Positions 246 to 17,593 of a DNA stretch of 17,593 bases are shown here, piece by piece. The notes beneath the pieces were generated by a model, which worked only from the letters and a program-made list of their open reading frames with translations, ran no database searches and was not told the DNA's origin. Both the position numbers and the translations under genes were made by a program. Position 1 is the first letter of the stretch. Each line of letters starts with the position of its first letter. Source of the DNA: a virus (lineage: Duplodnaviria > Heunggongvirae > Uroviricota > Caudoviricetes); the IMG/VR virus record IMGVR_UViG_2526164601_000022; one strand, 5' to 3'.

Positions 246-1834
246 AACGAACGCCTGTCCTGATTGATGTGAACGGTGTTCCGCTTCGGGAGAGCCTCAG
301 CTACAACGGGGGCGGTGCAGGATTTGGCGGGCAAATGGCGGAGTGGTTGCCACCGGCGCAGAGTGCCGATGCGGCCCTGTTGCCCGCGTTGCGTCTGGGC
401 AATGCCCGTGCAGATGATCTGGTGCGCAATAACGGGATAGCGGCCAATGCGGTGGCACTGCATAAGGATCATATTGTCGGGCATATGTTTCTGATCAGCT
501 ACCGTCCGAACTGGCGCTGGCTGGGGATGCGGGAGACTGCAGCAAAAAGTTTTGTCGATGAGGTGGAGGCGGCCTGGTCGGAATACGCCGAAGGGATGTC
601 TGGCGAGATCGACGTGGAAGGGAAACGCACGTTTACGGAATTTATCCGTGAAGGTGTGGGCGTTCATGCGTTTAACGGCGAAATCTTTGTGCAGCCGGTC
701 TGGGATACGGAGAGCACGCAACTGTTTCGTACGCGTTTTAAAGCCGTGAGTCCGAAACGGGTGGACACGCCAGGACACGGTATGGGGAACCGTTTTCTGC
801 GGGCCGGGGTGGAGGTCGATCGATATGGCCGTGCCGTTGCGTACCATATCTGTGAGGATGATTTTCCGTTCTCTGGTAGTGGACGATGGGAACGGATCCC
901 GCGTGAACTACCCACCGGGCGTCCGGCCATGCTGCATATTTTCGAGCCGGTGGAGGACGGGCAGACCCGTGGGGCTAATCAGTTTTACAGCGTCATGGAA
1001 CGGCTGAAGATGCTGGATTCCCTGCAGGCAACACAGCTTCAGTCGGCCATTGTGAAAGCCATGTATGCAGCGACGATTGAAAGTGAACTTGATACCGAAA
1101 AGGCCTTTGAATATATCGCCGGTGCGCCGCAGGGGCAGAAGGATAATCCGCTTATTAATATTCTGGATAAGTTCTCCACCTGGTATGACACGAATAACGT
1201 GACGCTGGGCGGTGTCAAAATTCCGCACCTTTTCCCCGGTGATGATCTGAAACTACAGACTGCGCAGGATTCAGACAATGGATTTTCGGCGCTTGAACAG
1301 GCGCTGCTGCGGTATATCGCCGCCGGTCTTGGCGTTTCCTACGAACAGTTGTCCCGGGATTACTCGAAGGTCAGTTATTCAAGTGCCCGCGCCTCCGCCA
1401 ATGAGTCGTGGCGCTATTTTACGGGACGACGAAAATTTATTGCGTCCCGGCTGGCCACGCAGATGTTTTCCTGCTGGCTGGAAGAGGCACTTCTTCGGGG
1501 GATTATTCGTCCGCCACGGGCGCGTTTTGATTTTTATCAGGCGCGATCAGCCTGGTCACGGGCTGAGTGGATTGGAGCCGGAAGAATGGCCATTGACGGG
1601 CTCAAGGAAGTCCAGGAATCAGTGATGCGCATTGAGGCCGGACTGAGCACGTATGAGAAAGAGCTGGCGCTGATGGGCGAGGATTATCAGGACATTTTCC
1701 GCCAGCAGGTCAGGGAATCTGCTGAGCGACAAAAAGCCGGACTCTCACGTCCGGTGTGGATAGCGCAGGCGTATGAGCAGCAGATAGCGGAGAGTCGCAG
1801 GCCGGAAGAGGAGACAACACCACGTGAGACGTAA
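242..1834 (+). CDS. B: Portal protein gpB
   Basis: 530 aa ORF (lambda B 533 aa) following W; SD GGAGTGAGG upstream of ATG 242; lambda-like synteny. Confidence 0.9.
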   Translation: MKRTPVLIDVNGVPLRESLSYNGGGAGFGGQMAEWLPPAQSADAALLPALRLGNARADDLVRNNGIAANAVALHKDHIVGHMFLISYRPNWRWLGMRETAAKSFVDEVEAAWSEYAEGMSGEIDVEGKRTFTEFIREGVGVHAFNGEIFVQPVWDTESTQLFRTRFKAVSPKRVDTPGHGMGNRFLRAGVEVDRYGRAVAYHICEDDFPFSGSGRWERIPRELPTGRPAMLHIFEPVEDGQTRGANQFYSVMERLKMLDSLQATQLQSAIVKAMYAATIESELDTEKAFEYIAGAPQGQKDNPLINILDKFSTWYDTNNVTLGGVKIPHLFPGDDLKLQTAQDSDNGFSALEQALLRYIAAGLGVSYEQLSRDYSKVSYSSARASANESWRYFTGRRKFIASRLATQMFSCWLEEALLRGIIRPPRARFDFYQARSAWSRAEWIGAGRMAIDGLKEVQESVMRIEAGLSTYEKELALMGEDYQDIFRQQVRESAERQKAGLSRPVWIAQAYEQQIAESRRPEEETTPRET

Positions 1835-3329
1835 TCTTTCACACATTATTGCCGCAGCATTCAATGAACCGCTGCTTCTGGAGCCCGCCTATGCGCGGGT
1901 TTTCTTTTGCGCGCTCGGGCGCGAGATGGGGGCATCAAGTCTTTCGGTACCACAACAGCAGGTACAGTTTGATGCTCCCGGAATGCTGGCTGAAACGGAC
2001 GAGTACATGGCCGGAGGTAAACGACCGGCCCGTGTTTACCGGGTGGTGAACGGTATTGCTGTACTGCCGGTGACCGGCACGCTGGTGCACCGGCTGGGGG
2101 GTATGCGGCCATTTTCCGGAATGACAGGCTATGACGGCATTGTCGCCTGTCTTCAGCAGGCAATGGCGGATAGCCAGGTGCGGGGCGTACTGCTGGACAT
2201 TGACAGTCCGGGCGGGCAGGCCGCCGGCGCGTTTGACTGCGCTGACATGATTTACCGCCTCCGTCAGCAGAAGCCGGTCTGGGCACTGTGCAATGACACG
2301 GCCTGCTCTGCAGCCATGCTGCTGGCGTCGGCCTGCTCCCGACGGCTGGTTACCCAGACATCCCGTATCGGCTCCATTGGCGTGATGATGAGCCATGTCA
2401 GCTATGCCGGTCATCTGGCGCAGGCCGGTGTTGATATCACGCTGATTTACTCAGGGGCGCACAAGGTGGATGGCAATCAGTTTGAAGCGTTGCCGGCAGA
2501 GGTTCGCCAGGACATGCAACAGCGCATTGATGCGGCGCGCCGGATGTTTGCTGAAAAAGTAGCGATGTATACCGGTCTGTCTGTTGATGCTGTCACGGGA
2601 ACAGAGGCCGCCGTTTTTGAAGGTCAGTCCGGCATTGAGGCCGGGCTGGCGGATGAATTAATCAATGCGTCGGATGCCATCAGTGTGATGGCCACGGCGC
2701 TGAACAGTAATGTCAGAGGAGGCACTATGCCGCAATTAACTGCAACGGAAGCCGCCGCGCAGGAGAACCAGCGGGTGATGGGGATCCTGACATGCCAGGA
2801 AGCGAAAGGACGTGAACAGCTTGCCACGATGCTGGCAGGACAACAGGGCATGAGCGTTGAACAGGCCCGGGCGATTCTGGCCGCGGCGGCACCACAGCAG
2901 CCGGTGGCATCCGCGCAGAGTGAAGCCGATCGCATTATGGCGTGTGAAGAAGCGAAAGGTCGTGAACAACTGGCGGCAACGCTGGCGGCGATGCCGGAGA
3001 TGACGGTGGAAAAAGCCCGCCCGATCCTGGCTGCTTCACCGCAGGCGGATGCCGGACCCTCACTCCGTGATCAGATCATGGCACTGGATGAGGCAAAAGG
3101 GGCTGAGGCGCAGGCTGAACAGCTGGCTGCCTGCCCGGGAATGACTGTGGAGAGCGCCCGGGCTGTGCTGGCTGCGGGATCAGGTAAGGCAGAACCGGTC
3201 TCTGCATCCACAACCGCCATGTTTGAACGCATCATGGCGAACCATTCACCGGCAGCGGTACAGGGTGGCGTGCCACAGACGTCAGCAGACGGTGATGCGG
3301 ACGTGAAAATGCTCATGGCCATGCCATGA
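1824..3329 (+). CDS. C: Capsid maturation protease / scaffold gpC (S49 ClpP/SppA-like peptidase)
   Basis: 501 aa; N-terminus RNLSHIIAAAFNEPLLLEPAYARVFFCAL resembles recalled lambda C; S49 signature LLDIDSPGGQAAGAFD; GTG start at 1824 overlapping B end (exact start uncertain). Confidence 0.88.
   Translation: MRRNLSHIIAAAFNEPLLLEPAYARVFFCALGREMGASSLSVPQQQVQFDAPGMLAETDEYMAGGKRPARVYRVVNGIAVLPVTGTLVHRLGGMRPFSGMTGYDGIVACLQQAMADSQVRGVLLDIDSPGGQAAGAFDCADMIYRLRQQKPVWALCNDTACSAAMLLASACSRRLVTQTSRIGSIGVMMSHVSYAGHLAQAGVDITLIYSGAHKVDGNQFEALPAEVRQDMQQRIDAARRMFAEKVAMYTGLSVDAVTGTEAAVFEGQSGIEAGLADELINASDAISVMATALNSNVRGGTMPQLTATEAAAQENQRVMGILTCQEAKGREQLATMLAGQQGMSVEQARAILAAAAPQQPVASAQSEADRIMACEEAKGREQLAATLAAMPEMTVEKARPILAASPQADAGPSLRDQIMALDEAKGAEAQAEQLAACPGMTVESARAVLAAGSGKAEPVSASTTAMFERIMANHSPAAVQGGVPQTSADGDADVKMLMAMP
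2727..3329 (+). CDS. nu3: Nu3-like scaffolding protein from an internal in-frame start within C
   Basis: Strong SD AGAGGAGG (2715-2722) 4 nt before in-frame ATG 2727 inside C; lambda Nu3 is likewise the in-frame C-terminal part of C. Confidence 0.6.
   Translation: MPQLTATEAAAQENQRVMGILTCQEAKGREQLATMLAGQQGMSVEQARAILAAAAPQQPVASAQSEADRIMACEEAKGREQLAATLAAMPEMTVEKARPILAASPQADAGPSLRDQIMALDEAKGAEAQAEQLAACPGMTVESARAVLAAGSGKAEPVSASTTAMFERIMANHSPAAVQGGVPQTSADGDADVKMLMAMP
2772..3236 (+). repeat. Degenerate in-frame tandem repeats (3 copies plus partial 4th; units 44-56 codons) in the scaffold domain
   Basis: Protein units start RVMGILTCQEAKGREQLA (2772), RIMACEEAKGREQLA (2940), QIMALDEAKGAEAQAEQLA (3072), RIMANHSP (3228); each has a ...MTVE.AR.ILAA... 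core. DNA copies are diverged. Confidence 0.5.
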
Positions 3330-3365
3330 AGCCAGTGCTGACCATCAACAGGAGGTTTTTACAAT

Positions 3366-3713
3366 ATGGTGACGAAAACCATCACTGAACAGCGTGCGGA
3401 AGTACGTATTTTTGCCGGTAATGATCCGGCTCATACCGCCACAGGCAGCAGCGGGATTTCCTCGGCAACACCGGCACTGACGCCCCTGATGCTGGATGAG
3501 GCTACCGGGAAACTGGTGGTCTGGGACGGACAGAAAGCCGGTAGTGCGGTTGGCATACTGGTACTGCCGCTTGAAGGCACAGAGACGGTACTGACGTATT
3601 ACAAGTCGGGGACCTTTGCGACGGAGGCAATCCGCTGGCCTGACAGTGTGGATGAACACAAAAAGGCAAATGCCTTTGCCGGCAGTGCCCTGAGTCACGC
3701 GGCGCTGCCGTAA
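3366..3713 (+). CDS. D: Head decoration protein gpD
   Basis: 115 aa; NDPAHTAT...TPLMLDE...KLVVWDG...YYKSGTF...AFAGSAL matches recalled lambda D; SD CAGGAGG upstream. Confidence 0.9.
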   Translation: MVTKTITEQRAEVRIFAGNDPAHTATGSSGISSATPALTPLMLDEATGKLVVWDGQKAGSAVGILVLPLEGTETVLTYYKSGTFATEAIRWPDSVDEHKKANAFAGSALSHAALP

Positions 3714-3770
3714 CACGTTATCAGGCCACCGCGGTGGCCTGACTGATTTCTGAATGAAAGGAACTGATTT

Positions 3771-4799
3771 ATGGGATTGTTTACGACCCGCCAGTTACTC
3801 GGTTATACCGAACAAAAAGTGAAATTTCGTGCGCTGTTTCTGGAGCTGTTTTTCCGCCGTACGGTGAATTTCCATACCGAAGAGGTGATGCTGGACAAAA
3901 TTACCGGAAAAACGCCGGTGGCGGCCTATGTCTCCCCGGTTGTTGAAGGAAAAGTGCTGCGTCATCGTGGTGGTGAAACCCGCGTGTTACGTCCGGGCTA
4001 CGTCAAGCCGAAACACGAATTTAATTACCAGCAGGCGGTTGAGCGTCTTCCCGGTGAAGATCCGGCTCAACTGAACGACCCGGCCTACCGTCGTCTGCGT
4101 ATCATCACCGATAACCTCAAACAGGAAGAGCATGCCATTGTCCAGGTGGAAGAAATGCAGGCGGTGAATGCCGTGCTGTATGGCAAATACACCATGGAAG
4201 GGGATCAGTTTGATACTGTCGAGGTGGATTTTGGACGCTCTGAAGGAAATAACATTGAGCAGGCCGACGGTAAAAAATGGTCTGAGCAGGACCGTGATAC
4301 GTTTGATCCGACGCATGATATTGACCTCTACTGCGATCAGGCCAGCGGTCTTGTGAATATTGCCATTATGGACGGTACTGTCTGGCGTCTGCTGAATGGT
4401 TTTAAGCTGTTCCGCGAAAAACTGGATACCCGTCGCGGCTCAAATTCACAACTCGAAACGGCAGTGAAAGACCTGGGGGCGGTGGTGTCTTTCAAAGGGT
4501 ATTACGGCGATCTGGCCATTGTGGTGGCGAAAACGTCTTATGTGGCAGAGGACGGTACCGAAAAACGTTATCTGCCGGAGGGCACGCTGGTCCTGGGAAA
4601 TACGGCTGCAGATGGGATCCGTTGTTACGGTGCCATTCAGGATGCGCAGGCGTTGTCCGAAGGTGTGGTGGCTTCTTCCCGTTACCCGAAACACTGGCTG
4701 ACCGTGGGCGATCCGGCCCGTGAATTTACCATGACGCAGTCCGCACCGCTGATGGTGCTGCCGGATCCGGATGAGTTTGTGGTGGTGCAGGTGAAATAA
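3771..4799 (+). CDS. E: Major capsid protein gpE
   Basis: 342 aa (lambda E 341); blocks LFLELFFRR, RPGYVKPKHE, DPAYRRLRII, EEMQAVNAVLYGKYTMEGD, LDTRRGSNSQLETAVKDLG, GDPAREFTMTQSAPLM match recalled lambda E. Confidence 0.93.
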   Translation: MGLFTTRQLLGYTEQKVKFRALFLELFFRRTVNFHTEEVMLDKITGKTPVAAYVSPVVEGKVLRHRGGETRVLRPGYVKPKHEFNYQQAVERLPGEDPAQLNDPAYRRLRIITDNLKQEEHAIVQVEEMQAVNAVLYGKYTMEGDQFDTVEVDFGRSEGNNIEQADGKKWSEQDRDTFDPTHDIDLYCDQASGLVNIAIMDGTVWRLLNGFKLFREKLDTRRGSNSQLETAVKDLGAVVSFKGYYGDLAIVVAKTSYVAEDGTEKRYLPEGTLVLGNTAADGIRCYGAIQDAQALSEGVVASSRYPKHWLTVGDPAREFTMTQSAPLMVLPDPDEFVVVQVK

Positions 4800-4807
4800 T
4801 CCGTGAG

Positions 4808-4836
4808 CGGGGGCGAAATGCCCCCGTGTCTTTTTT
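4808..4836 (+). terminator. Candidate intrinsic terminator / attenuating hairpin downstream of E
   Basis: 7-bp G+C stem CGGGGGC (4808-4814) / GCCCCCG (4820-4826), loop GAAAT, then TGTC + T6 (4831-4836); 9 nt after E stop, in the FI leader. Confidence 0.45.
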
Positions 4837-4850
4837 CACAGGGGGCTGAT

Positions 4851-5234
4851 ATGGCAACAAAAGAAGAAAATCAGAAACATCTTCGTCAACTGGCTGGCCT
4901 GCTGGGGCGCGAGGCGGATATGTCGGGGAGTGCTGCGGATATTGCGCAACGTGTGTCTGAGTGGGAAGAGGAGCTTGCTGCTTCCCGGGAGGGCATTATG
5001 CCTGGTGATGAGAGCGGGCCTGAGCAAAATCACACAGACGATGGTGAGCAGTTGCACAACACTGATGCTACGGATGATGTTAAAGCGGTCCGTGTGCGGA
5101 AATGCCTGCATGTGATGGGGTATTGCCCGGAGACAGGCCGTCCCGTTGAACTGACGTACCGGGGCATGCGTGTTCTGGTGCCATCACCACTGGCGACAGC
5201 CATGATACAGCACGGAACGGCTGAGCATGCGTGA
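4851..5234 (+). CDS. FI: DNA-packaging/head assembly protein gpFI
   Basis: N-terminus MATKEENQKHLRQLAGLL...AQRVSEWEEEL aligns with recalled lambda FI (MTKDELIARLRSLGEQL...ALRVAELKEEL). ATG 4851 preferred over the upstream GTG 4803 of the ORF track. Confidence 0.75.
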   Translation: MATKEENQKHLRQLAGLLGREADMSGSAADIAQRVSEWEEELAASREGIMPGDESGPEQNHTDDGEQLHNTDATDDVKAVRVRKCLHVMGYCPETGRPVELTYRGMRVLVPSPLATAMIQHGTAEHA

Positions 5235-5433
5235 TTTTCAGAATGCCTTTGATGCTGCCCTTGCCGGGGTGGACAGCACGATTGTTGAAGTGATGGGGCT
5301 CTGTGCGCAGTTCACCTCGGGGGCACAGTGTGGCAGCGAAGTTCAGGGGGTTTTTGACGATCCGGAGTCGCTGGGGTTTGCCGGTAGCGGGGTCCGTATT
5401 GAAGGAAGCTGCCCGTCATTATTTAACTGGTAA
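5227..5433 (+). pseudogene. FII: Head-tail connector gpFII, C-terminally truncated (about 66 homologous codons, then NW-stop)
   Basis: MRDFQNAFDAALAGVDSTIVEVMG...GVFDDPESLGFAGSGVRIEGSCPSLF matches the first ~66 residues of recalled lambda FII (117 aa); reading frame ends at TAA 5431-5433 where homology stops. Confidence 0.7.
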
Positions 5434-6200: not shown

Positions 6201-6953
6201 ATGCCAACACCAAATCCCCTGGCGCCGGTAAAAGGTGCCGGTACCACTCTGTGGGTTTACACCGGCAAGGGTGATGCTTATGCAAACCCGTTGTCAGATG
6301 ATGACTGGCAGCGACTGGCTAAGGTGAAGGATCTGACGCCGGGCGAGATGACGGCAGAATCCTACGATGATAACTACCTGGATGATGAAGACGCGGACTG
6401 GAGCGCGACCGGGCAGGGACAGAAATCTGCGGGTGACACCCGTTTTACACTGGCCTGGAAACCGGGAGAAGAAGGTCAGAAAGGGCTTATAGGCTGGTTT
6501 GAAAGCGGGGATGTGCGGGCCTATAAAATCCGTTTTCCGAATGGCACGGTGGATGTGTTTCGTTGCTGGATCAGCAGTATCGGTAAGGCAGTGACGGCGA
6601 AAGAAGTGATCACCCGAACAGTGAAAGTGACCAACGTGGGCAAACCTTCCGTGGCGGAAGAACGCAGCGAAATTACGCCGGCCACTGCAATTAAGGTGAC
6701 ACCGACATCCGGTACCGTGGAAAAAGGAAAAACAACCACCCTGACTGTTTCTTTTGAGCCGGAAAGTGCAACCGACAAGACGTTCAGAGCGGTTTCCGCC
6801 GATCCGTCAACGGGAACCATTGCTGTGAAAGATATGGTGATCACTGTGACGGGGGTTAAGGCTGGAAAAGTGAGTATCCCCGTGATTTCCGGTAATGGTC
6901 AGTTTGCCACGGTAGCTGAAGTCACCGTTACTGAAGCGGGCGCTGCAGGGTAA
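6201..6953 (+). CDS. V: Major tail tube protein gpV (with C-terminal Ig-like domain)
   Basis: 250 aa (lambda V 246); [12 protein letters not shown]...[23 protein letters not shown]...[14 protein letters not shown]...[15 protein letters not shown] matches recalled lambda V; SD GAGGA upstream. Confidence 0.93.
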
Positions 6954-6966
6954 ACGGAGGTCATAC

Positions 6967-7398
6967 ATGTTTCTGAAAACAGAACAATTTGAATATAACG
7001 GTGTGTCTGTCACGCTTTCCGAATTGTCTGCGCTGCAGCGTATTGAGCATCTTGCCCTCCTGAAACGGCGTGCAGAACAGGCAGAATCCAGCGGCAACCT
7101 GCAGGTAAGCGTGGAAGATCTCGTCAGAACCGGCGCGTTTCTGGTGGCGATGTCCCTGTGGCATAACCATCTGCAGAAAACGGGGTCACCGTCAATGAAT
7201 GAGGCCGTGATGCAGATTGAGCAGGAAGTCCTGACCACCTGGCCTGCTGATGCCATTGCCCGGGCGGAAGACGTGGTGTTGTGCCTGTCCGGGATGATCG
7301 AAGCTGTTCGTCCGGATACTGATATTACTGAAGTGGCGAAAAATAACACGCTGACTGATGATGATTTTTCTGCGGGAAAGTCTTCGACGGCGAGCTGA
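6967..7398 (+). CDS. G: Tail assembly chaperone gpG
   Basis: 143 aa (lambda G 140); MFLKTEQFEYNGVSVTLSELSALQRIEHLALLKRRAEQAES...GAFLVAMSLWHNH matches recalled lambda G; SD GGAGG upstream. Confidence 0.9.
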   Translation: MFLKTEQFEYNGVSVTLSELSALQRIEHLALLKRRAEQAESSGNLQVSVEDLVRTGAFLVAMSLWHNHLQKTGSPSMNEAVMQIEQEVLTTWPADAIARAEDVVLCLSGMIEAVRPDTDITEVAKNNTLTDDDFSAGKSSTAS

Positions 7399-7838
7399 AC
7401 TTTGCCCTCAGACTGGCGCGAGAGATGGGGAGGCCTGACTGGCGCGCCATGCTTGCCGGGATGACATCCACCGAATATGCCGACTGGCGACATTTTTACC
7501 GCACGCATTATTTTCAGGATACCCAGCTGGATATGCATTTTTCCGGGCTGACGTACGCTGTACTCAGCCTGTTTTTTTGCGATCCGGATATGCATCCCTC
7601 TGATTTCAGTCTGCTTGTCCCCCGGCATGAGGAAGAGCAGGTGGAGAGGCCGGATGAGGACAAAATGCTGATGCAGAAAGCGGCAGGACTTGCCGGAGGC
7701 GTCCGGTTCGGTGGGGACGGAGGGCGCGATATTTTATCGTCTGCGGATGTGGCGGATGTCATGGTGGATGATGCCGCATTAATGATGGCTTCAGCGGAGA
7801 TTTCCGGAGGTGTGAGATATGTCCCAGCCGGTTGGTGA
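6967..7838 (+). CDS. G-T: Tail assembly chaperone G-T fusion made by -1 frameshift (join 6967..7380, 7380..7838)
   Basis: -1 frame after the slippery site reads VFDGELNFALRLAREMGRPDWRAMLAGMTSTEYADWRHFYRTHYF...LMQKAAGLAGGVRFG, matching recalled lambda T; has no independent start/SD context. Confidence 0.75.
7374..7380 (+). promoter_or_regulatory. Programmed -1 ribosomal frameshift slippery heptamer G GGA AAG (G to G-T recoding site)
   Basis: GGGAAAG lies in G frame as G|GGA|AAG, 6 codons before the G stop; the -1 frame is open from 7365 to 7838 and encodes the T domain. Confidence 0.75.
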
Positions 7839-10398
7839 TCTTGTTATTGACCTGAGTCTGGATGCTGTCCGTTTCGATGAGCAGATGAGCCGGGTAAGGC
7901 GTCATTTTTCAGGTCTGGATACCGACGTCAGAAAAACCGCCAGTGCTGTTGAACAGGGCCTGAGCCGCCAGGCGCTGGCTGCACAAAAAGCCGGGATTTC
8001 CGTCGGGCAGTATAAAGCGGCCATGCGAACCCTGCCCGCACAGTTTACGGATATCGCCACGCAGCTTGCCGGTGGTCAGAATCCCTGGCTGATCCTGCTG
8101 CAACAGGGCGGTCAGGTGAAGGACTCCTTCGGCGGGATGATCCCCATGTTCAGGGGGCTTGCCGGTGCGATCACCCTGCCGATGGTCGGGGTCACCTCGC
8201 TGGCGGTGGCGACAGGTGCGCTGGCGTACGCCTGGTACCAGGGGGATTCCACGCTTTCAGCGTTTAATAAAACCCTGGTTCTTTCCGGTAATCAGTCCGG
8301 ACTGACTGCCGATCGTATGCTGACTCTCTCAAGAGCCGGGCAGGCAGCAGGGCTGACGTTTAACCAGGCGAGAGAGTCACTGGCAGCCCTGGTGAATGCC
8401 GGTGTGCGTGGTGGTGAACAGTTTGATGCCATCAACCAGAGTGTCGCGCGTTTTGCGTCTGCATCCGGTGTGGAGGTGGATAAAGTCGCTGAAGCCTTCG
8501 GGAAGCTGACCACTGACCCGACGTCGGGACTGATGGCGATGGCGCGCCAGTTCCGTAACGTGACGGCAGAGCAGATTGCGTATGTTGCGCAGCTGCAGCG
8601 TTCCGGTGATGAGGCCGGGGCCTTACAGGCGGCGAACGATATCGCCACGAAAGGCTTTGATGAGCAGACCCGTCGCCTGAAAGAAAACATGGGAACACTG
8701 GAGACCTGGGCGGATAAAACCGGGAAGGCATTCAAATCGATGTGGGATGCCATTCTGGATATCGGTCGTCCTGAGTCCTCAGCGGATATGCTCGCCAGTG
8801 CGCAGAAGGCATTTGATGAGGCGGATAAAAAATGGCAGTGGTACCAGAGTCGGAGCCAGCGCCGCGGTAAAACCTCCTCTTTCCGGGCCAACCTTCAGGG
8901 CGCATGGAATGACCGGGAAAATGCCCGTCTGGGGCTGGCAGCGGCCACGCTGCAGTCGGATATGGAAAAAGCCGGTGAACTGGCCGCCAGGGACCGGGCC
9001 GAACGGGACGCATCACAGCTGAAGTATACCGGAGAGGCGCAGAAGGCGTATGAGCGTCTGCTGACGCCGCTGGAGAAATATACCGCCCGTCAGGAAGAAC
9101 TGAATAAGGCACTGAAAGACGGGAAAATCCTGCAGGCAGATTACAACACGCTGATGGCGGCGGCGAAAAAGGATTATGAATCGACGCTGAAAAAGCCGAA
9201 ACAGTCCGGCGTGAAGGTGTCTGCGGGCGATCGTCAGGAAGACAGTGCTCATGCTGCCCTGCTGACGCTTCAGGCAGAACTCCGGATGCTGGAGAAGCAT
9301 GCCGGAGCGAATGAGAAAATCAGCCAGCAGCGTCGCGATTTATGGAAAGCGGAAAATCAGTATGCGGTCCTGAAAGAGGCAGCCACGAAACGGCAGTTAT
9401 CTGAGCAGGAAAAATCCCTGCTGACCCATGAGAAAGAGACGCTGGAGTACAAACGCCAGCTGGCTGAGCTGGGAGACAAAGTTGAACACCAGAAACGGCT
9501 GAATGAGCTGGCACAGCAGGCTGCGCGGTTTGAGCAGCAGCAGGGCGCGAAGCAGGCGGCAATCAGTGCCCAGGCGCGGGGCCTCACCGACCGTCAGGTG
9601 CAGCGGGAGTCGGAAGAGCAGCGCCTTCGTGACGTGTACGGTGATAATCCGGATGCGCTGGCGAAGGCCACATCTGCACTGAAGAACACCTGGTCTGCGG
9701 AGGAGCAGCTTCGTGGAAGCTGGATGGCCGGTCTGAAGTCCGGCTGGGGCGAGTGGGCAGAAAGTGCGACGGACAGTTTTTCGCAGGTTAAAAGCGTGGC
9801 CACGCAGACCTTTGACGGTATTGCACAGAATATGGCAGCGATGCTGACCGGCAGCGAACAGAGCTGGCGTGGTTTCACCCGTTCTGTGCTCTCCATGCTG
9901 ACAGAGATTTTTCTGAAGCAGGCCATGGTGGGGATTGTCGGGAGTATTGGCAGCGCCATGGGTGGTGCTTTCGGTGGTGGTGCGTCTGCCTCCACGGGGA
10001 CGGCCATTCAGGCTGCGGCGGCGAACTTCCATTTCGCGACCGGAGGATTTACGGGAACCGGTGGCAAATACGAACCTGCCGGTATTGTCCACCGCGGGGA
10101 GTTTGTCTTCACGAAGGAGGCAACCAGCCGGATTGGCGTCGGCAACCTGTATCGTCTGATGCGCGGGTATGCGGAAGGTGGTTATGTGGGCGGTGCCGGA
10201 AGTTCGGCGCAGATGCGGCGGACGGAAGGCATTAATTTTAATCAGAACAATCACGTGGTGATTCAGAACGACGGCTCCAACGGACAGGCGGGGCCGCAGC
10301 TGATGAAGGCGGTGTATGACATGGCCCGCAAGGGGGCGCAGGATGAGATTCAGGCGCAGATGCGTGATGGCGGCGTCTTTTCCGGAGGCAGGCGATGA
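7819..10398 (+). CDS. H: Tail tape measure protein gpH
   Basis: 859 aa (lambda H 853); N-terminus MSQPVGDLVIDLSLDAVRFDEQMSRVRRHFSG...AGISVGQYKAAMRTLPAQFTD...LILLQQGGQVKDSFGGMIPMFRGLAGAITLPMVG matches recalled lambda H; coiled-coil-like middle, Gly-rich C-terminal part. Confidence 0.93.
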   Translation: MSQPVGDLVIDLSLDAVRFDEQMSRVRRHFSGLDTDVRKTASAVEQGLSRQALAAQKAGISVGQYKAAMRTLPAQFTDIATQLAGGQNPWLILLQQGGQVKDSFGGMIPMFRGLAGAITLPMVGVTSLAVATGALAYAWYQGDSTLSAFNKTLVLSGNQSGLTADRMLTLSRAGQAAGLTFNQARESLAALVNAGVRGGEQFDAINQSVARFASASGVEVDKVAEAFGKLTTDPTSGLMAMARQFRNVTAEQIAYVAQLQRSGDEAGALQAANDIATKGFDEQTRRLKENMGTLETWADKTGKAFKSMWDAILDIGRPESSADMLASAQKAFDEADKKWQWYQSRSQRRGKTSSFRANLQGAWNDRENARLGLAAATLQSDMEKAGELAARDRAERDASQLKYTGEAQKAYERLLTPLEKYTARQEELNKALKDGKILQADYNTLMAAAKKDYESTLKKPKQSGVKVSAGDRQEDSAHAALLTLQAELRMLEKHAGANEKISQQRRDLWKAENQYAVLKEAATKRQLSEQEKSLLTHEKETLEYKRQLAELGDKVEHQKRLNELAQQAARFEQQQGAKQAAISAQARGLTDRQVQRESEEQRLRDVYGDNPDALAKATSALKNTWSAEEQLRGSWMAGLKSGWGEWAESATDSFSQVKSVATQTFDGIAQNMAAMLTGSEQSWRGFTRSVLSMLTEIFLKQAMVGIVGSIGSAMGGAFGGGASASTGTAIQAAAANFHFATGGFTGTGGKYEPAGIVHRGEFVFTKEATSRIGVGNLYRLMRGYAEGGYVGGAGSSAQMRRTEGINFNQNNHVVIQNDGSNGQAGPQLMKAVYDMARKGAQDEIQAQMRDGGVFSGGRR

Positions 10399-10724: not shown

Positions 10725-11421
10725 TGCAGGATATTCACGAAGAAAGTCTGAACGAGTCGGTTAAATCAGAGCAGTCACCGCGGGTGGTGCTCTGGGAAAT
10801 TGACCTGACGGTGCAGGGCGGTGAGCGGTATTTTTTCTGTAATGAGCTGAATGAAAAAGGGGAGGCGGTCACCTGGCAGGGGCGGCAATATCAGGTATAC
10901 CCGATTGACGGCAGTGGCTTTGAGATGAACGGGAAGGGCAGCAGTGCCCGCCCGTCGCTGACGGTGTCGAATCTGTTCGGTCTGGTCACCGGAATGGCGG
11001 AGGACCTGCAGAGCCTGGTGGGGGCCACGGTGGTCCGCCGCCGGGTGTATGCCCGTTTTCTGGATGCGGTGAATTTTGTGGCGGGCAATCCGGAAGCGGA
11101 CCCGGAGCAGGAGCTGAGCGACCGCTGGGTGGTGGAGCAGATGTCAGAGCTGACGGCCATGACAGCCTCGTTTGTGCTGGCAACACCGACGGAGACGGAC
11201 GGAGCGCTGTTTCCCGGTCGCATTATGCTGGCGAATACCTGTATGTGGACCTACCGCTCTGATGAGTGTGGTTACACGGTCCTGCGGTGGCGGATGAGTT
11301 CGATAAACCCATCACCGATATCCGTAAGGACAGATGCAGCAAGTGCATGCGCGGGTGTGAGATGCGCGGCATGGTGGCTAATTTTGGCGGTTTCCTTTCC
11401 ATTAACAAACTTTCGCAGTAA
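10724..11421 (+). pseudogene. L: Minor tail protein gpL, 1-bp frameshift near codon 185 (or assembly indel)
   Basis: Residues 1-184 match recalled lambda L (…GRIMLANTCMWTYRSDECGY); the lambda-like C-terminus GPAVADEFDKPITDIRKDRCSKCMRGCEMRGMVANFGGFLSINKLSQ-stop continues from 11278 in frame +2 relative to the start, implying one missing base at 11276-11278. The uninterrupted track ORF (to 11731) is the out-of-frame readthrough. Confidence 0.75.
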
Positions 11422-11426
11422 ATCCA

Positions 11427-12170
11427 ATGACACAGACAGAATCAGCGATTCTGGCGCATGCCCGGCGGTGTGCGCCTGCGGAGTCGTGCGGCTTCGTGGT
11501 GAGAACGCCGGAGGGGGAGCGGTATATCCCTTGTGTGAATATCTCTGCAGAGCCGGAGGCGTATTTTCGTATTGCACCGGAAGACTGGCTGCGGGCAGAG
11601 ATGCAGGGGGAGATTGTGACACTGGTCCACAGTCATCCCGGTGGTCTGCCCTGGCTGAGCGAGGCCGACCGGCGGCTGCAGATAAAAAGTGCACTGTCCT
11701 GGTGGCTGGTCTGCCGGGGGGAAATTCATAAATTCCGCTGTGTGCCACATCTGACAGGACGGCGCTTTGAGCACGGGGTGACGGACTGTTACACGCTGTT
11801 CCGGGATGCCTACCATCTGGCGGGAATTGATATGCCGGATTTTGAGCGTGAGGATGACTGGTGGCGCAACGGTCAGAACCTTTACCTGGACAATATGGAG
11901 GCGACTGGTTTTTACAGGATTTCCCTGCCTTCCGCACAGCCTGGCGATATCCTGCTGTGCTGCTTTGGCGCATCGGTGGCCAATCATGCCGCCATATACT
12001 GCGGCAACGGTGAACTGCTTCACCATCTGCCTGAACAACTGAGTAAACGGGAGAGGTATTCCGAAAAATGGCAACGACGAACGCATTCAGCCTGGCGTCA
12101 CCGCCACTGGCACGTATCTGCCTTCACGGGGATTTACAACGATTTGGCCGCCGCCTCAGCCTGTATGTGA
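11427..12170 (+). CDS. K: Tail tip assembly protein gpK (JAB/MPN metalloprotease + NlpC/P60 domains)
   Basis: 247 aa; JAMM motif HSHPGGLPWLSEAD (HxHx7SxxD); C-terminal Cys/His region (GVTDCYTLF...NHAAIYCG...HH) consistent with NlpC/P60; 103-nt overlap with I as in lambda. Confidence 0.88.
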   Translation: MTQTESAILAHARRCAPAESCGFVVRTPEGERYIPCVNISAEPEAYFRIAPEDWLRAEMQGEIVTLVHSHPGGLPWLSEADRRLQIKSALSWWLVCRGEIHKFRCVPHLTGRRFEHGVTDCYTLFRDAYHLAGIDMPDFEREDDWWRNGQNLYLDNMEATGFYRISLPSAQPGDILLCCFGASVANHAAIYCGNGELLHHLPEQLSKRERYSEKWQRRTHSAWRHRHWHVSAFTGIYNDLAAASACM

Positions 12171-12748
12171 ACACGGCAGCGGAAGCCATCCGTGCCCTGT
12201 CGATGCAGATGCCGGGATTCCGCCGTCAGATGAACGAAGGCTGGTACCAGATACGTATTCGCGGTGAGGACACGGCACCGGAGGCGGTGTACGCCCGTCT
12301 TCACGAACAGCTGGGTGAGGGAACGGTCATCCACATTGTGCCGCGACTGGCCGGGGCCGGAAAGGGTGGACTGCAGATTGTGCTGGGGGCGGCAGCCATC
12401 GTGGGGTCGTTCTTCACGGCCGGGGCATCAATGGCGTTATGGGGTTCAGCCCTGGCAGCCGGTGGTTTTTCTGCCACCACGATGCTGTTTTCACTGGGGG
12501 CCAGCATGATTCTGGGTGGTGTGGCCCAGATGCTGGCCCCGAAGGCAAAAGCACCGGATTACCGCGCAACGGATAACGGCAGACAGAACACGTACTTTTC
12601 CTCACTGGACAACATGATTGCTCAGGGGAACCCGATGCCGGTGCCTTACGGTGAAATGCTGGTTGGCTCCCGCCGTATATCCCAGGACATCAGTACCCGT
12701 GATGAAGGCGGTGACGGGAAGGTGGTGGTTATCGGGCGGCAGGCATAA
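12068..12748 (+). CDS. I: Tail tip assembly protein gpI
   Basis: 226 aa (lambda I 223); MATTNAFSLASPPLARICLHGDLQRFGRR...GWYQIRI...VIHIVPRLAGA...QNTYFSSLDNM matches recalled lambda I. Confidence 0.9.
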   Translation: MATTNAFSLASPPLARICLHGDLQRFGRRLSLYVNTAAEAIRALSMQMPGFRRQMNEGWYQIRIRGEDTAPEAVYARLHEQLGEGTVIHIVPRLAGAGKGGLQIVLGAAAIVGSFFTAGASMALWGSALAAGGFSATTMLFSLGASMILGGVAQMLAPKAKAPDYRATDNGRQNTYFSSLDNMIAQGNPMPVPYGEMLVGSRRISQDISTRDEGGDGKVVVIGRQA

Positions 12749-13597: not shown

Positions 13598-16500
13598 ATG
13601 GGTAAAGGTGGCGGCAGGGCGCACACACCTCGTGAGGCGAAGGACAATCTCAAATCCACGCAGATGATGAGCGTGATTGACGCCATTGGTGAAGGGCCGA
13701 TTGAAGGTCCGGTGAAGGGGCTGCAGAGTATCCTGGTGAACAAAACCCCGCTGACGGACACGGACGGTAATCCTGTGATACATGGTGTGACCGCGGTCTG
13801 GCGCGCCGGGGAGCAGGAGCAGACACCACCTGAAGGCTTTGAGTCCTCCGGGGCGGAAACCGCACTGGGCGTGGAAGTGACGAAGGCAAAGCCGGTGACG
13901 CGCACCATTACATCCGCGAACATTGACCGCCTGCGGGTCACCTTCGGGGTGCAGTCACTGGTGCAGACCACGTCAAAGGGTGACCGAAACCCGACATCCG
14001 TCCGACTGCTGATTCAGTTACAGCGTAACGGTAACTGGGTGACGGAAAAGGATGTCACCATTAACGGCAAGACCACCTCGCAGTTTCTGGCGTCGGTGAT
14101 TCTGGATAATCTGCCTGAGCGGCCCTTTAACATCCGGATGGTCCGGGAGACAGCGGACAGCACCTCGGACCAGCTGCAGAATAAGACGCTCTGGTCGTCA
14201 TACACCGAAATCATCGATGTGAAACAGTGCTACCCGAACACGGCGATTGTGGGGCTGCAGGTGGATGCGGAGCAGTTCGGCGGCCAGCAGATGACGGTGA
14301 ACTACCATATCCGCGGTCGCATCATCCAGGTGCCGTCAAACTATGACCCGGAAAAACGCACGTACAGTGGTATCTGGGACGGCAGTCTGAAACCGGCATA
14401 CAGCAACAACCCGGCCTGGTGTCTGTGGGACATGCTGACTCACCCGCGCTACGGCATGGGAAAACGTCTGGGGGCGGCGGATGTGGACAAGTGGGCGCTG
14501 TATGCCATCGGGCAGTACTGCGACCAGACGGTCCCGGATGGTTTCGGGGGGACCGAGCCGCGGATGACCTTTAATGCGTACCTGGCACAACAGCGTAAGG
14601 CGTGGGACGTTCTCAGTGATTTCTGCTCTGCGATGCGCTGTATGCCGGTATGGAACGGTCAGACGCTGACGTTCGTTCAGGACCGCCCGTCGGATGTGGT
14701 GTGGCCGTACACCAACAGCGATGTGGTGGTGGATGATAACGGCGTGGGATTCCGCTACAGCTTCAGTGCCCTGAAGGACCGGCACACGGCGGTGGAGGTG
14801 AATTACACCGACCCGCAGAACGGCTGGCAGACCTCCACGGAACTGGTGGAAGACCCGGAAGCCATACTGCGCTACGGACGCAACCTGCTGAAGATGGACG
14901 CGTTCGGCTGTACCAGCCGCGGTCAGGCCCACCGTGCCGGACTGTGGGTGATAAAGACCGAACTGCTGGAAACGCAGACGGTGGATTTCACGCTCGGGTC
15001 TCAGGGGCTGCGGCACACACCCGGTGACATTATTGAAATCTGTGATAATGACTATGCCGGGACCCTGACCGGCGGACGTGTCCTGTCCATTGATGCTGCC
15101 ACCCGCACCCTGACGCTGGACCGTGAGGTGACCCTGCCGGAGACAGGTGCCGCCACGGTGAACCTGATTAACGGCAGCGGTAAGCCGGTGAGTGTGGCCA
15201 TCACTGCACACCCCGCGCCGGACCGGATACAGGTCAGCACCCTGCCTGATGGTGTGGAGACATACGGTGTATGGGGACTCTCCCTGCCGTCACTGCGTCG
15301 TCGCCTGTTCCGCTGTGTCTCCATCCGGGAAAACACGGACGGCACCTTTGCCATCACGGCGGTGCAGCACGTACCGGAAAAGAAGCCATCGTGGATAACG
15401 GGGCCAGCTTTGAGCCGCAGTCAGGCACCCTGAACAGCGTTATTCCACCGGCAGTGCAGCACCTGACGGTGGAGGTGAGCGCGGCTGACGGTCAGTATCT
15501 GGCACAGGCGAAATGGGACACGCCGCGGGTGGTGAAGGGTGTGCGCTTCAGTCTGCGCCTGACCAGCGGAAGCGGAGAAGACAGCCGTCTGGTGACCACC
15601 GCCATCACTGCGGATACAGAGCATCGTTTCAGTGGTCTGCCGCTCGGGGAATACACCCTGACAGTCAGGGCAATTAACAGTTATGGCCAGCAGGGGAACC
15701 GGCCACCACCACGTTCAGGATTAATGCACCTGCGGTACCGCCACGATTGAGCTGACACCGGGCTATTTTCAGATAACAGCGGTCCCGCGTCTTGCGGTGT
15801 ATGACCCGACGGTACAGTTTGAGTTCTGGTTTTCGGAGGCAAAAATCGCAGACATATCTCAGGTGGAAACCTCTGCCCGTTATCTGGGGACCGGCAGTCA
15901 GTGGAGTGTATCCGGCCCGCACATTAAGCCCGGGAAGGATTTCTGGTTTTACGTGCGCAGCGTCAACCTGGTGGGGAAATCTGCTTTTGTGGAAGCCAGT
16001 GGCCGGGCCAGCAATGATGCAGAAGGGTATCTGGGACTGTTTCGGGAAAAAATAGGAAAACTGCATCTGGCTCAGGGGCTGTGGGAGCTGATAGACAACA
16101 GCCAGCTTGCGGATGAGATGGCGGAGATGAAGACCACCATCACCGAAACCCGCAATGAAATCACACAGACGGTCAGTAAAACGCTGGAAGACCAGAGCGC
16201 CACCATACAGCAGATACAGCGCGTGCAGAAGGACACAAATGATGACCTTGCTGCACTTTACATGCTGAAGGTACAGAAAACAAAAAATGGCATACCCTAT
16301 GTTGCCGGTATTGGAGCGGGGATTGAGGATACTGATGGCCAGCCCCTGAGCAACATACTGCTGCTGGCTGACCGTATTGCGATGATTAACCCGGAGGACG
16401 GCAACACCACGCCGTTATTTGTGGCGCAGGGGAATCAGTTGTTCATGAACGATGTGTTCCTGAAGCGGCTGTTTGCGGTGAGTATCACCTCGTCCGGCAA

Positions 16501-17069
16501 TCCCCCGACGTTTTCCCTGACGCCGGAGGGCAGGCTGACCGCAAGAAATGCTGATATCAGCGGTAACGTGAATGCGAATTCCGGGACGCTCAACAACGTC
16601 ACGATTAACGAGAACTGTCGGGTTCTGGGAAAACTGTCCGCGAACCAGATTGAAGGCGATCTCGTTAAAACAGTGGGCAAAGCTTTCCCCCGGGATTCCC
16701 GTGCACCGGAGCGGTGGCCATCAGGGACCATTACCGTCAGGGTTTATGACGATCAGCCGTTTGACCGACAAATTGTTATTCCGGCGGTGGCATTCAGCGG
16801 CGCTAAGCATGAGAGAGAGCATACTGATATTTACTCCTCATGCCGTCTGATAGTGCGGAAAAAACGGTGCTGAAATTTATAACCGTACCGCGCTGGATAA
16901 TACGCTGATTTACAGTGGCGTTATTGATATGCCTGCCGGTCACGGTCACATGACGCTGGAGTTTTCGGTATCAGCATGGCTGGTGAATAACTGGTATCCC
17001 ACAGCAAGTATCAGCGATTTGCTGGTTGTGGTGATGAAGAAAGCCACCGCAGGCATCAGTATCAGCTGA
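13598..17069 (+). pseudogene. J: Central tail fiber / host specificity protein gpJ, interrupted by four 1-bp indels (or assembly errors)
   Basis: Colinear with recalled lambda J (1132 aa) from [22 protein letters not shown] to the C-terminal ...[14 protein letters not shown]-stop (17067-17069), but homology hops frames at ~15378-15381 (A4, -1), ~15693-15696 (G4, -1), ~15744-15746 (-1) and 16859-16864 (A6, +1). SD GAGAGGAACATT before ATG 13598. Confidence 0.8.
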
Positions 17070-17088
17070 ATTTTATAACCCATATACG

Positions 17089-17112
17089 GGCGCCAGAAAT
17101 GGCGCCTTTTTT
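17089..17112 (+). terminator. Intrinsic terminator downstream of J
   Basis: 7-bp stem GGCGCCA (17089-17095) / TGGCGCC (17100-17106) with GAAA tetraloop, immediately followed by T6 (17107-17112); 20 nt after the repaired J stop. Confidence 0.6.
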
Positions 17113-17136: not shown

Positions 17137-17593
17137 ATGCGTAAACTTTATGCCGCCATTTTGTCCGCAGCCATTTGTCTGGCCGTATCCGGTGCGCCTG
17201 CATGGGCGTCTGAACATCAGTCCACGCTGAGCGCGGGGTATCTTCATGTCTCGACGAACGTTCCTGGCAGCGATGAACTGAACGGGATTAACGTGAAATA
17301 CCGTTATGAGTTTACGGACACTCTGGGAATGGTGACGTCATTCAGCTATGCAGGAGACAAGAATCGCCAGCTGACCCGTTACAGCGATACCCGCTGGCAT
17401 GAAGATTCCGTGCGTAACCGCTGGTTCAGCGTGATGGCGGGGCCGTCTGTGCGCGTGAATGAATGGTTCAGCGCGTATGCGATGGCGGGTGTGGCTTACA
17501 GCCGTGTGTCGACTTTCTCCGGGGATTATCTTCGCGTAACTGACAACAAGGGGAAAACGCACGATGTGCTGACCGGAAGTGATGACGGTCGCC
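17137..17593 (+). CDS. lom: Ail/Lom-family outer membrane protein (partial; continues past window end)
   Basis: ORF open from ATG 17137 (SD GAGAGG 5 nt upstream) to window end, 152 codons; signal peptide MRKLYAAILSAAICLAVSGAPAWA; GINVKYRYEFTD, SVMAGPSVRVN, SAYAMAGVAYSR match recalled lambda Lom blocks. Absent from the ORF track because it has no in-window stop. Confidence 0.8.
   Translation, partial: MRKLYAAILSAAICLAVSGAPAWASEHQSTLSAGYLHVSTNVPGSDELNGINVKYRYEFTDTLGMVTSFSYAGDKNRQLTRYSDTRWHEDSVRNRWFSVMAGPSVRVNEWFSAYAMAGVAYSRVSTFSGDYLRVTDNKGKTHDVLTGSDDGR

Follow-up and report, generated by a model that had tools for sequence, protein, structure and literature searches.

An A6 run near the 3' end of the J gene of a lambdoid prophage raises the question of whether one additional adenine has severed the receptor-binding end of the encoded tip attachment protein, or whether the extra base is an error of sequence determination. 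The initial annotation of this locus described the run as the fourth lesion in J and treated it as a biological one.

The prophage contig and its gene order

The window, by which is meant the whole 17,593-bp stretch of DNA analysed here, was identified by exact look-up of its 611-amino-acid J fragment as the complete contig AIGO01000013.1 of assembly GCA_000249975.2. The AIGO accession belongs to E. coli DEC9E (O26:H11, ST29), which was isolated in Mexico in 1986 (PMC5592225). The same source, together with protein names, places DEC9E among the draft genomes of Hazen et al. (2012). The window comprises late genes of a lambdoid prophage, including those for head and tail, and its principal features outside J are the following:

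Gene order: W, portal, protease/scaffold, D, E, FI, FII/Z, U, V, G, T, H
Gene order, continued: M, L, K, I, sodC (minus strand), J, start of lom
242-1834, 6201-6953, 7819-10398 and 12167-12748: portal, V, tape-measure (H) and I, whose exact proteins occur on this contig only
12937-13464, minus strand: sodC (Cu,Zn superoxide dismutase), an intact cargo gene between I and J
17088-17112, plus strand: terminator-like GC hairpin with a T-run, directly 3' of J
17137-17593, plus strand: lom (Ail/Lom outer membrane protein), 5' part, truncated at the contig end

The ends of the window are the ends of the contig, one lying near the terminase/W junction and the other within lom, and this is the look expected of a prophage contig bounded by repeats. 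A total of 18 prophage regions have been predicted in DEC9E (Delannoy et al.), and a single E. coli genome can hold sequences of the J 3' end at as many as 14 places; given these two counts, a consensus derived from repeats is plausible. The complete E. coli collection holds no closed DEC9E genome, and the best whole-window match within it, the chromosome of DEC9B, is approximately 98.5-98.6% identical. In a look-up across about 15 billion proteins, exact copies of the portal, V, tape-measure and I proteins came from this contig only, while the protease, capsid, M and sodC proteins were each encountered on at least 1000 contigs. The contig-unique proteins could reflect a rare mosaic prophage or, alternatively, a mixed consensus. 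The placement of sodC between I and J, which is unlike lambda, is shared with DEC9B, with B1_2 and with some Stx2a phages; sodC is absent upstream of J in phage JLK-2012 and in both of the other prophages found to carry an A6 run, described below. The terminator hairpin of sodC differs by 2 bp from that of DEC9B.

The J gene and its receptor-binding end

Alignment of the window with the DEC9B chromosome, its best complete-genome match, provided a complete list of indels across the full window. Within and around J the relevant features are:

13598-17069, plus strand: J (tip attachment / host specificity protein), four times frameshifted as deposited
13598-15433, plus strand: first J fragment, a 611-amino-acid ORF and the only product possible from the J start codon
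15378-15381, plus strand: lesion 1, A4 where relatives have A5 (-1; pairwise alignment with DEC9B)
15693-15696, plus strand: lesion 2, GGGG where relatives have GGGCG (-1; alignment with DEC9B)
15738-15739, plus strand: lesion 3, CC where relatives have CCC (-1; alignment with DEC9B)
15797-16873, plus strand: third J fragment, a 358-amino-acid ORF as called, open from 15725 and ending in RKKRC-TGA owing to A6
16673-17066, plus strand: C-terminal receptor-binding Ig-like domain, PF12421 (Pfam scan, residues 1027-1157 of repaired J; coordinates converted by hand, taking the three upstream deletions into account)
16859-16864, plus strand: lesion 4, A6 where relatives have A5 (+1; alignment with DEC9B, B1_2 and JLK-2012)
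16871-16873, plus strand: premature TGA resulting from the +1 shift, which ends the upstream J frame in RKKRC
16863-17069, plus strand: 68 out-of-frame codons, N1090 to S1157, and the natural stop; distal half of the receptor-binding domain

The local description given in the initial annotation holds in each of its particulars. The six adenines are read directly in the deposited sequence, translation confirms that the upstream frame terminates in RKKRC at the TGA while the next frame runs to 17069, and the 68 codons said to be out of frame correspond exactly to N1090 to S1157 of the repaired protein, the shift falling after K1089 (N1064 in lambda J). It had also been predicted that five adenines would give one continuous frame; removal of one A does join 15725-17069 into a single frame, and five is the number present in the DEC9B chromosome, the B1_2 chromosome and phage JLK-2012, all of which are otherwise near-identical in context. 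The count of four lesions was likewise correct, the alignment with DEC9B placing three 1-bp deletions upstream of the run.

These upstream deletions alter the meaning of the A6 run. Lesions 1, 2 and 3 together restore the original J frame, which A6 then shifts again, so the last 68 codons are indeed out of frame as had been claimed. However, J is first broken 1.5 kb upstream of A6, and since translation from the J start codon already ends at 15433, after 611 residues, the A6 run is not what disconnects the receptor-binding end. As deposited, J does not form the single uninterrupted reading frame of a trimer-forming protein: it contains four frameshifts and specifies a 611-amino-acid product. 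When all four indels are repaired the result is a J of 1157 amino acids that differs at 4 residues from the J of DEC9B, which is intact and also 1157 amino acids in length.

The repaired protein scores above the cut-off for all six Pfam families expected along its length (FNIII-A_GpJ, Phage-tail_3, Ig_J, Ig_J_second, Phage_Tail_Tip and Ig_GpJ_C), and the J fragments bear the same families in the source annotation. Lambda gpJ (PDB 8iyk, 8xcj) resembles it in gene position, after I and before lom, and in domain order; it is slightly shorter, at 1132 residues compared with 1157, and is free of the four frameshifts found in the deposited J of the window. Comparison of repaired J with chain 8iyk_J gave E = 0, with residues 1-834 and 863-1156 aligned. 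By its domain set, its full-length homology and its position between I and lom, repaired J belongs to the tip attachment proteins of the lambda type. The A6 run splits PF12421 near its middle. Because the +1-frame peptide completes this domain, and because the last 167 residues of repaired J align with lambda J 966-1131 (E = 1.8e-38), the peptide is judged from these sequence comparisons not to be a chance ORF.

The initial annotation stated that this C-terminus matches that of lambda J. Homology is evident from the alignment just described, but identity over the severed part is limited, with only 25 of 67 aligned residues beyond the frameshift being the same (37%). In lambda J, four loops of the C-terminal Ig-like domain contact LamB (PMC11101478). 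Since identity to lambda over the last 67 aligned residues is only 37%, the J of the window probably represents a different specificity type from that of lambda, with a receptor other than LamB. The nearest solved relative of the severed domain is the C-terminal fragment designated 'A8 gpJ 713' (PDB 9wca/9wcb), which aligns with the last 166 residues at E = 3.3e-61. In the uncoupled part, C-terminal end included, A8 gpJ (9wca) is identical to the J of the window at 44 of 68 positions (65%), and it differs by a 5-residue insertion and by the sequences of its loops. A search for a paper describing the receptor of A8 gpJ found none.

The J of phage JLK-2012 (NC_049942.1) is itself deposited as two CDSs, 1789-4590 and 4639-5262 (1789-5262 overall), with the interruption at a different place from those in the window.

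Origin of the extra adenine

Taken as a whole, the indel pattern suggests that the extra A is probably a sequencing or consensus artefact, namely a homopolymer error in an early draft contig derived from repeats. The biological status assumed for the lesion in the initial annotation is therefore not upheld, the sequence being a 2012 draft contig whose indels point to homopolymer miscalls. Directly observed are the A6 run itself, the A5 of relatives, the restriction of the upstream lesions to this contig, the excess of indels over substitutions and the comparable homopolymer indels of two drafts with neighbouring accessions; a technical cause, for both A6 and the upstream deletions, is what we infer. 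Under such a cause, the extra A would be a one-base error in homopolymer length within the J of a lambdoid prophage contig in the DEC9E draft, and the three upstream 1-bp deletions would share its origin. The error was most probably a miscall of the pyrosequencing type, made at consensus calling of a prophage sequence repeated many times in the genome. A6 would then probably be absent from the DNA of the strain, and the real gene would be an ordinary, intact J of 1157 amino acids with a C-terminal Ig-like domain that binds the host receptor. The DEC drafts of Hazen and colleagues from 2012 reportedly combined 454 and Illumina reads.

Several properties of the J lesions argue for this origin. 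The stretch from 15319 to 16768 shows no substitution at all relative to DEC9B, its only differences being three 1-bp deletions, and the substitutions that do occur in J relative to DEC9B are confined to three tight patches, which look like recombination tracts. Three of the four J lesions are changes of homopolymer length, and the remaining one merges G3-C-G into G4. No complete E. coli genome record was at least 99% identical to the 66 bases of window sequence surrounding lesion 1, the best matches listed for this query being one base longer, and none of the complete E. coli genomes that matched has lesion 2 or lesion 3. A look-up across 153 billion gene positions found the 611-, 119- and 358-amino-acid fragments into which J is divided nowhere but on this contig. 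What is observed in J are hence singleton homopolymer indels accompanied by few or no substitutions, the pattern by which homopolymer error is recognized.

The indels are also unevenly distributed, with four of the five coding 1-bp indels falling in J, which makes up 20% of the window (binomial p = 0.006). Homopolymer content was considered as the cause of this clustering and rejected, as J holds 19% of the homopolymer bases of the window and 20% of its length, nearly equal shares. Such clustering could come from difficulties of consensus calling where the prophage sequence is most repeated.

Indels of the same kind have been found in related drafts. Look-up of the separately called 46-amino-acid C-terminal ORF led to two more drafts of the AIG accession series, AIGX01000026.1 and AIGP01000013.1. 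The first of these (positions 900-1700) has A4 at the run, A3 reduced to A2 twelve bases further on, T4 reduced to T3 and one more 1-bp deletion, making three 1-bp deletions besides A4 within 500 bp, in addition to a change of T6 to T7 in the spacer. In the second (positions 1-900), J has gained a T and lom has two homopolymer frameshifts. From the ORF to the end of lom, the non-AIG assemblies recovered by this look-up are free of such indels and vary only by a common spacer polymorphism. This type of error thus recurs in drafts of the same series and not in others, in a sample that is small and in part ascertainment-biased, given that a look-up with the 46-amino-acid ORF selects for a broken J C-terminus; the lom lesions of AIGP01000013.1 are free of this bias. 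Frameshift errors have previously been suspected in the DEC9E assembly, in which the frameshifts of cas3 were questioned (Delannoy et al.). As a result of the AIGX/AIGP draft indels, lom is split into ORFs of 106 and 96 amino acids.

The alternative with the best claim to attention is genuine mutational decay, in which replication slippage in A5 would have added an A within a defective, unselected prophage, alongside other inactivating changes in J, L and FII/Z, and the receptor-binding end would truly not be made. We consider it unlikely, although the prophage does contain lesions that extend beyond J and beyond single bases:

5424/5425: loss of 327 bp that are present in DEC9B and in the other relatives checked, producing an FII/Z fusion
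11270-11295: -1 frameshift of L in a garbled patch (1-bp deletion at about 11282), relative to DEC9B
11426: 5 bp missing from the L-K spacer, immediately ahead of the K start codon

The first of these takes away 52 codons from the end of FII and 52 from the start of Z; no microhomology was found at its junction, and the 327 bases are present in all 15 of the best complete-genome matches listed for the junction. The patch in L, which counts on the side of a technical origin, has as its best match in any complete E. coli genome a sequence 93.5% identical over 76 bases, and the frameshift within it extends the ORF to 11731, giving 335 amino acids instead of 232. Homopolymer miscalling does not typically produce deletions of 327 bp and 5 bp, which would fit a truly defective prophage accumulating frameshifts and count against an artefact. 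Together with the four J frameshifts and the L frameshift, they supply what defines a frameshift pseudogene, namely a disrupted ORF in an element that carries other lesions. EHEC and EPEC lineages commonly carry defective lambdoid prophages. Decay is further favored by J pseudogenes with the same A6 in two complete genomes, annotated as frameshifted by PGAP and lying on unrelated J backgrounds, and by a J interrupted by IS66 in another genome. The occurrence of A6 in those two genomes means that a change from A5 to A6 can arise, or be called, elsewhere, which again weighs against an artefact, and a consensus seldom miscalls runs as short as C3.

Decay nevertheless accounts poorly for the pattern within J itself. 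A set of four J indels, with no substitution across 1.45 kb, is a poor fit to neutral mutation. In mutation-accumulation studies of E. coli, small indels are about one tenth as frequent as substitutions, and with this ratio the probability of three out of three events being indels is about 0.001. Neutral decay would be expected to spread lesions evenly, in contrast to the concentration of coding 1-bp indels in J given above (p = 0.006). The upstream lesions are found in no other isolate. The same kind of indel occurs in other drafts of the same series, including the A4 at this very run.

An error at consensus calling hence remains the preferred origin of the extra A, and the window serves mainly as a lesson in data quality: prophage frameshifts in sequence of this kind are unsafe to read as decay, or as something exotic, without read-level support. 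The biological importance of the A6 run is small, and under every reading it is unremarkable. If real, it would add one more frameshifted J pseudogene of a kind already flagged at the same site in two complete genomes.

Run-length variants and recoding

Comparison of the homopolymer length across isolates had been proposed as a check on the lesion, and it was carried out with a 66-base query centred on the A-run, which matched 3265 complete-genome records at 6702 places. Close relatives have A5, as described above, and the A6 66-mer is identical in only 2 of the 3265 matching records, those of 2014C-3057 and of the O1:H42 strain CLSC36; the next-best among the matches listed are all one base shorter. 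An exact 43-mer across the A6 run had no match in viral_contigs or genome_contigs. J is labelled a frameshifted pseudogene by PGAP in both 2014C-3057 (NZ_CP027387.1) and CLSC36 (NZ_CP041300.1); A6 occupies the homologous site, and the same 68 codons are cut off as in the window. The two are otherwise dissimilar: in 2014C-3057, A6 is the only lesion of a J that differs from that of the window by 108 substitutions, while the J of CLSC36 is very different (841 substitutions relative to DEC9B) and has one further frameshift. The change of A5 to A6 has arisen, or has been called, independently at least three times, and is still very rare.

With the A4 of draft AIGX01000026.1, variants of run length are known on four J backgrounds, the other three being the A6 of the window, of 2014C-3057 and of CLSC36. 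It might be proposed that the A5 run is a true recurrent mutational hot spot, at which the receptor-binding end is repeatedly switched off in resident prophages. Such a hot spot, if true, would suggest that lysogens are selected for disarming the J of the prophages they carry, but we regard it as highly improbable.

Even less credible is a functional switch, in which the A-run would govern production of the receptor-binding end by programmed +1 ribosomal or transcriptional slippage or as a phase-variable tract. The four different J backgrounds with run-length variants might be taken to favor a switch, re-pairing of tRNA-Lys after a +1 slip on AAA-A would be possible, and the local RNA fold is slightly better than that of shuffled controls (z = -2.1). 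However, the run consists of only 6 A and is predicted to lie in a hairpin loop rather than ahead of a downstream stimulatory stem. Tracts longer than 5-6 nt are usually needed for efficient slippage or phase variation. No conserved arrangement that requires a shift was found, close relatives having A5 in frame and A6 being restricted to 2 of the 3265 matching records, both of them annotated frameshifted pseudogenes and followed in the matches listed only by sequences one base shorter. Appreciable variation of tract length among isolates was likewise not found, the variants amounting to two A6 among the 3265 complete-genome records and one A4 draft. Finally, the J of the window is interrupted 1.5 kb before the run, which leaves no product able to use it. 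Programmed frameshifting and phase variation were accordingly rejected on both conservation and context.

A real programmed site does occur elsewhere in the window, in the G/T region, where a conserved slippery heptamer is present in the correct frame:

7374-7380: GGGAAAG, the lambda-type G/GT programmed -1 site, in frame near the end of G
6967-7398 and 7425-7838: G and T ORFs, with T open in the -1 frame

The -1 frameshift of lambda G/GT resembles the J A6 in that both involve a change of frame in a tail gene at a purine run. They differ in that the G/GT heptamer is conserved and needed by every relative, whereas in J relatives read straight through an A5, of which A6 is a rare variant.

A separate interruption of J is seen in GCA_026135215.1 (positions 1301-4000), where an IS66-family element lies inside the region coding for the receptor-binding domain and strands the same 46-amino-acid C-terminal ORF; this is clearly a real lesion.
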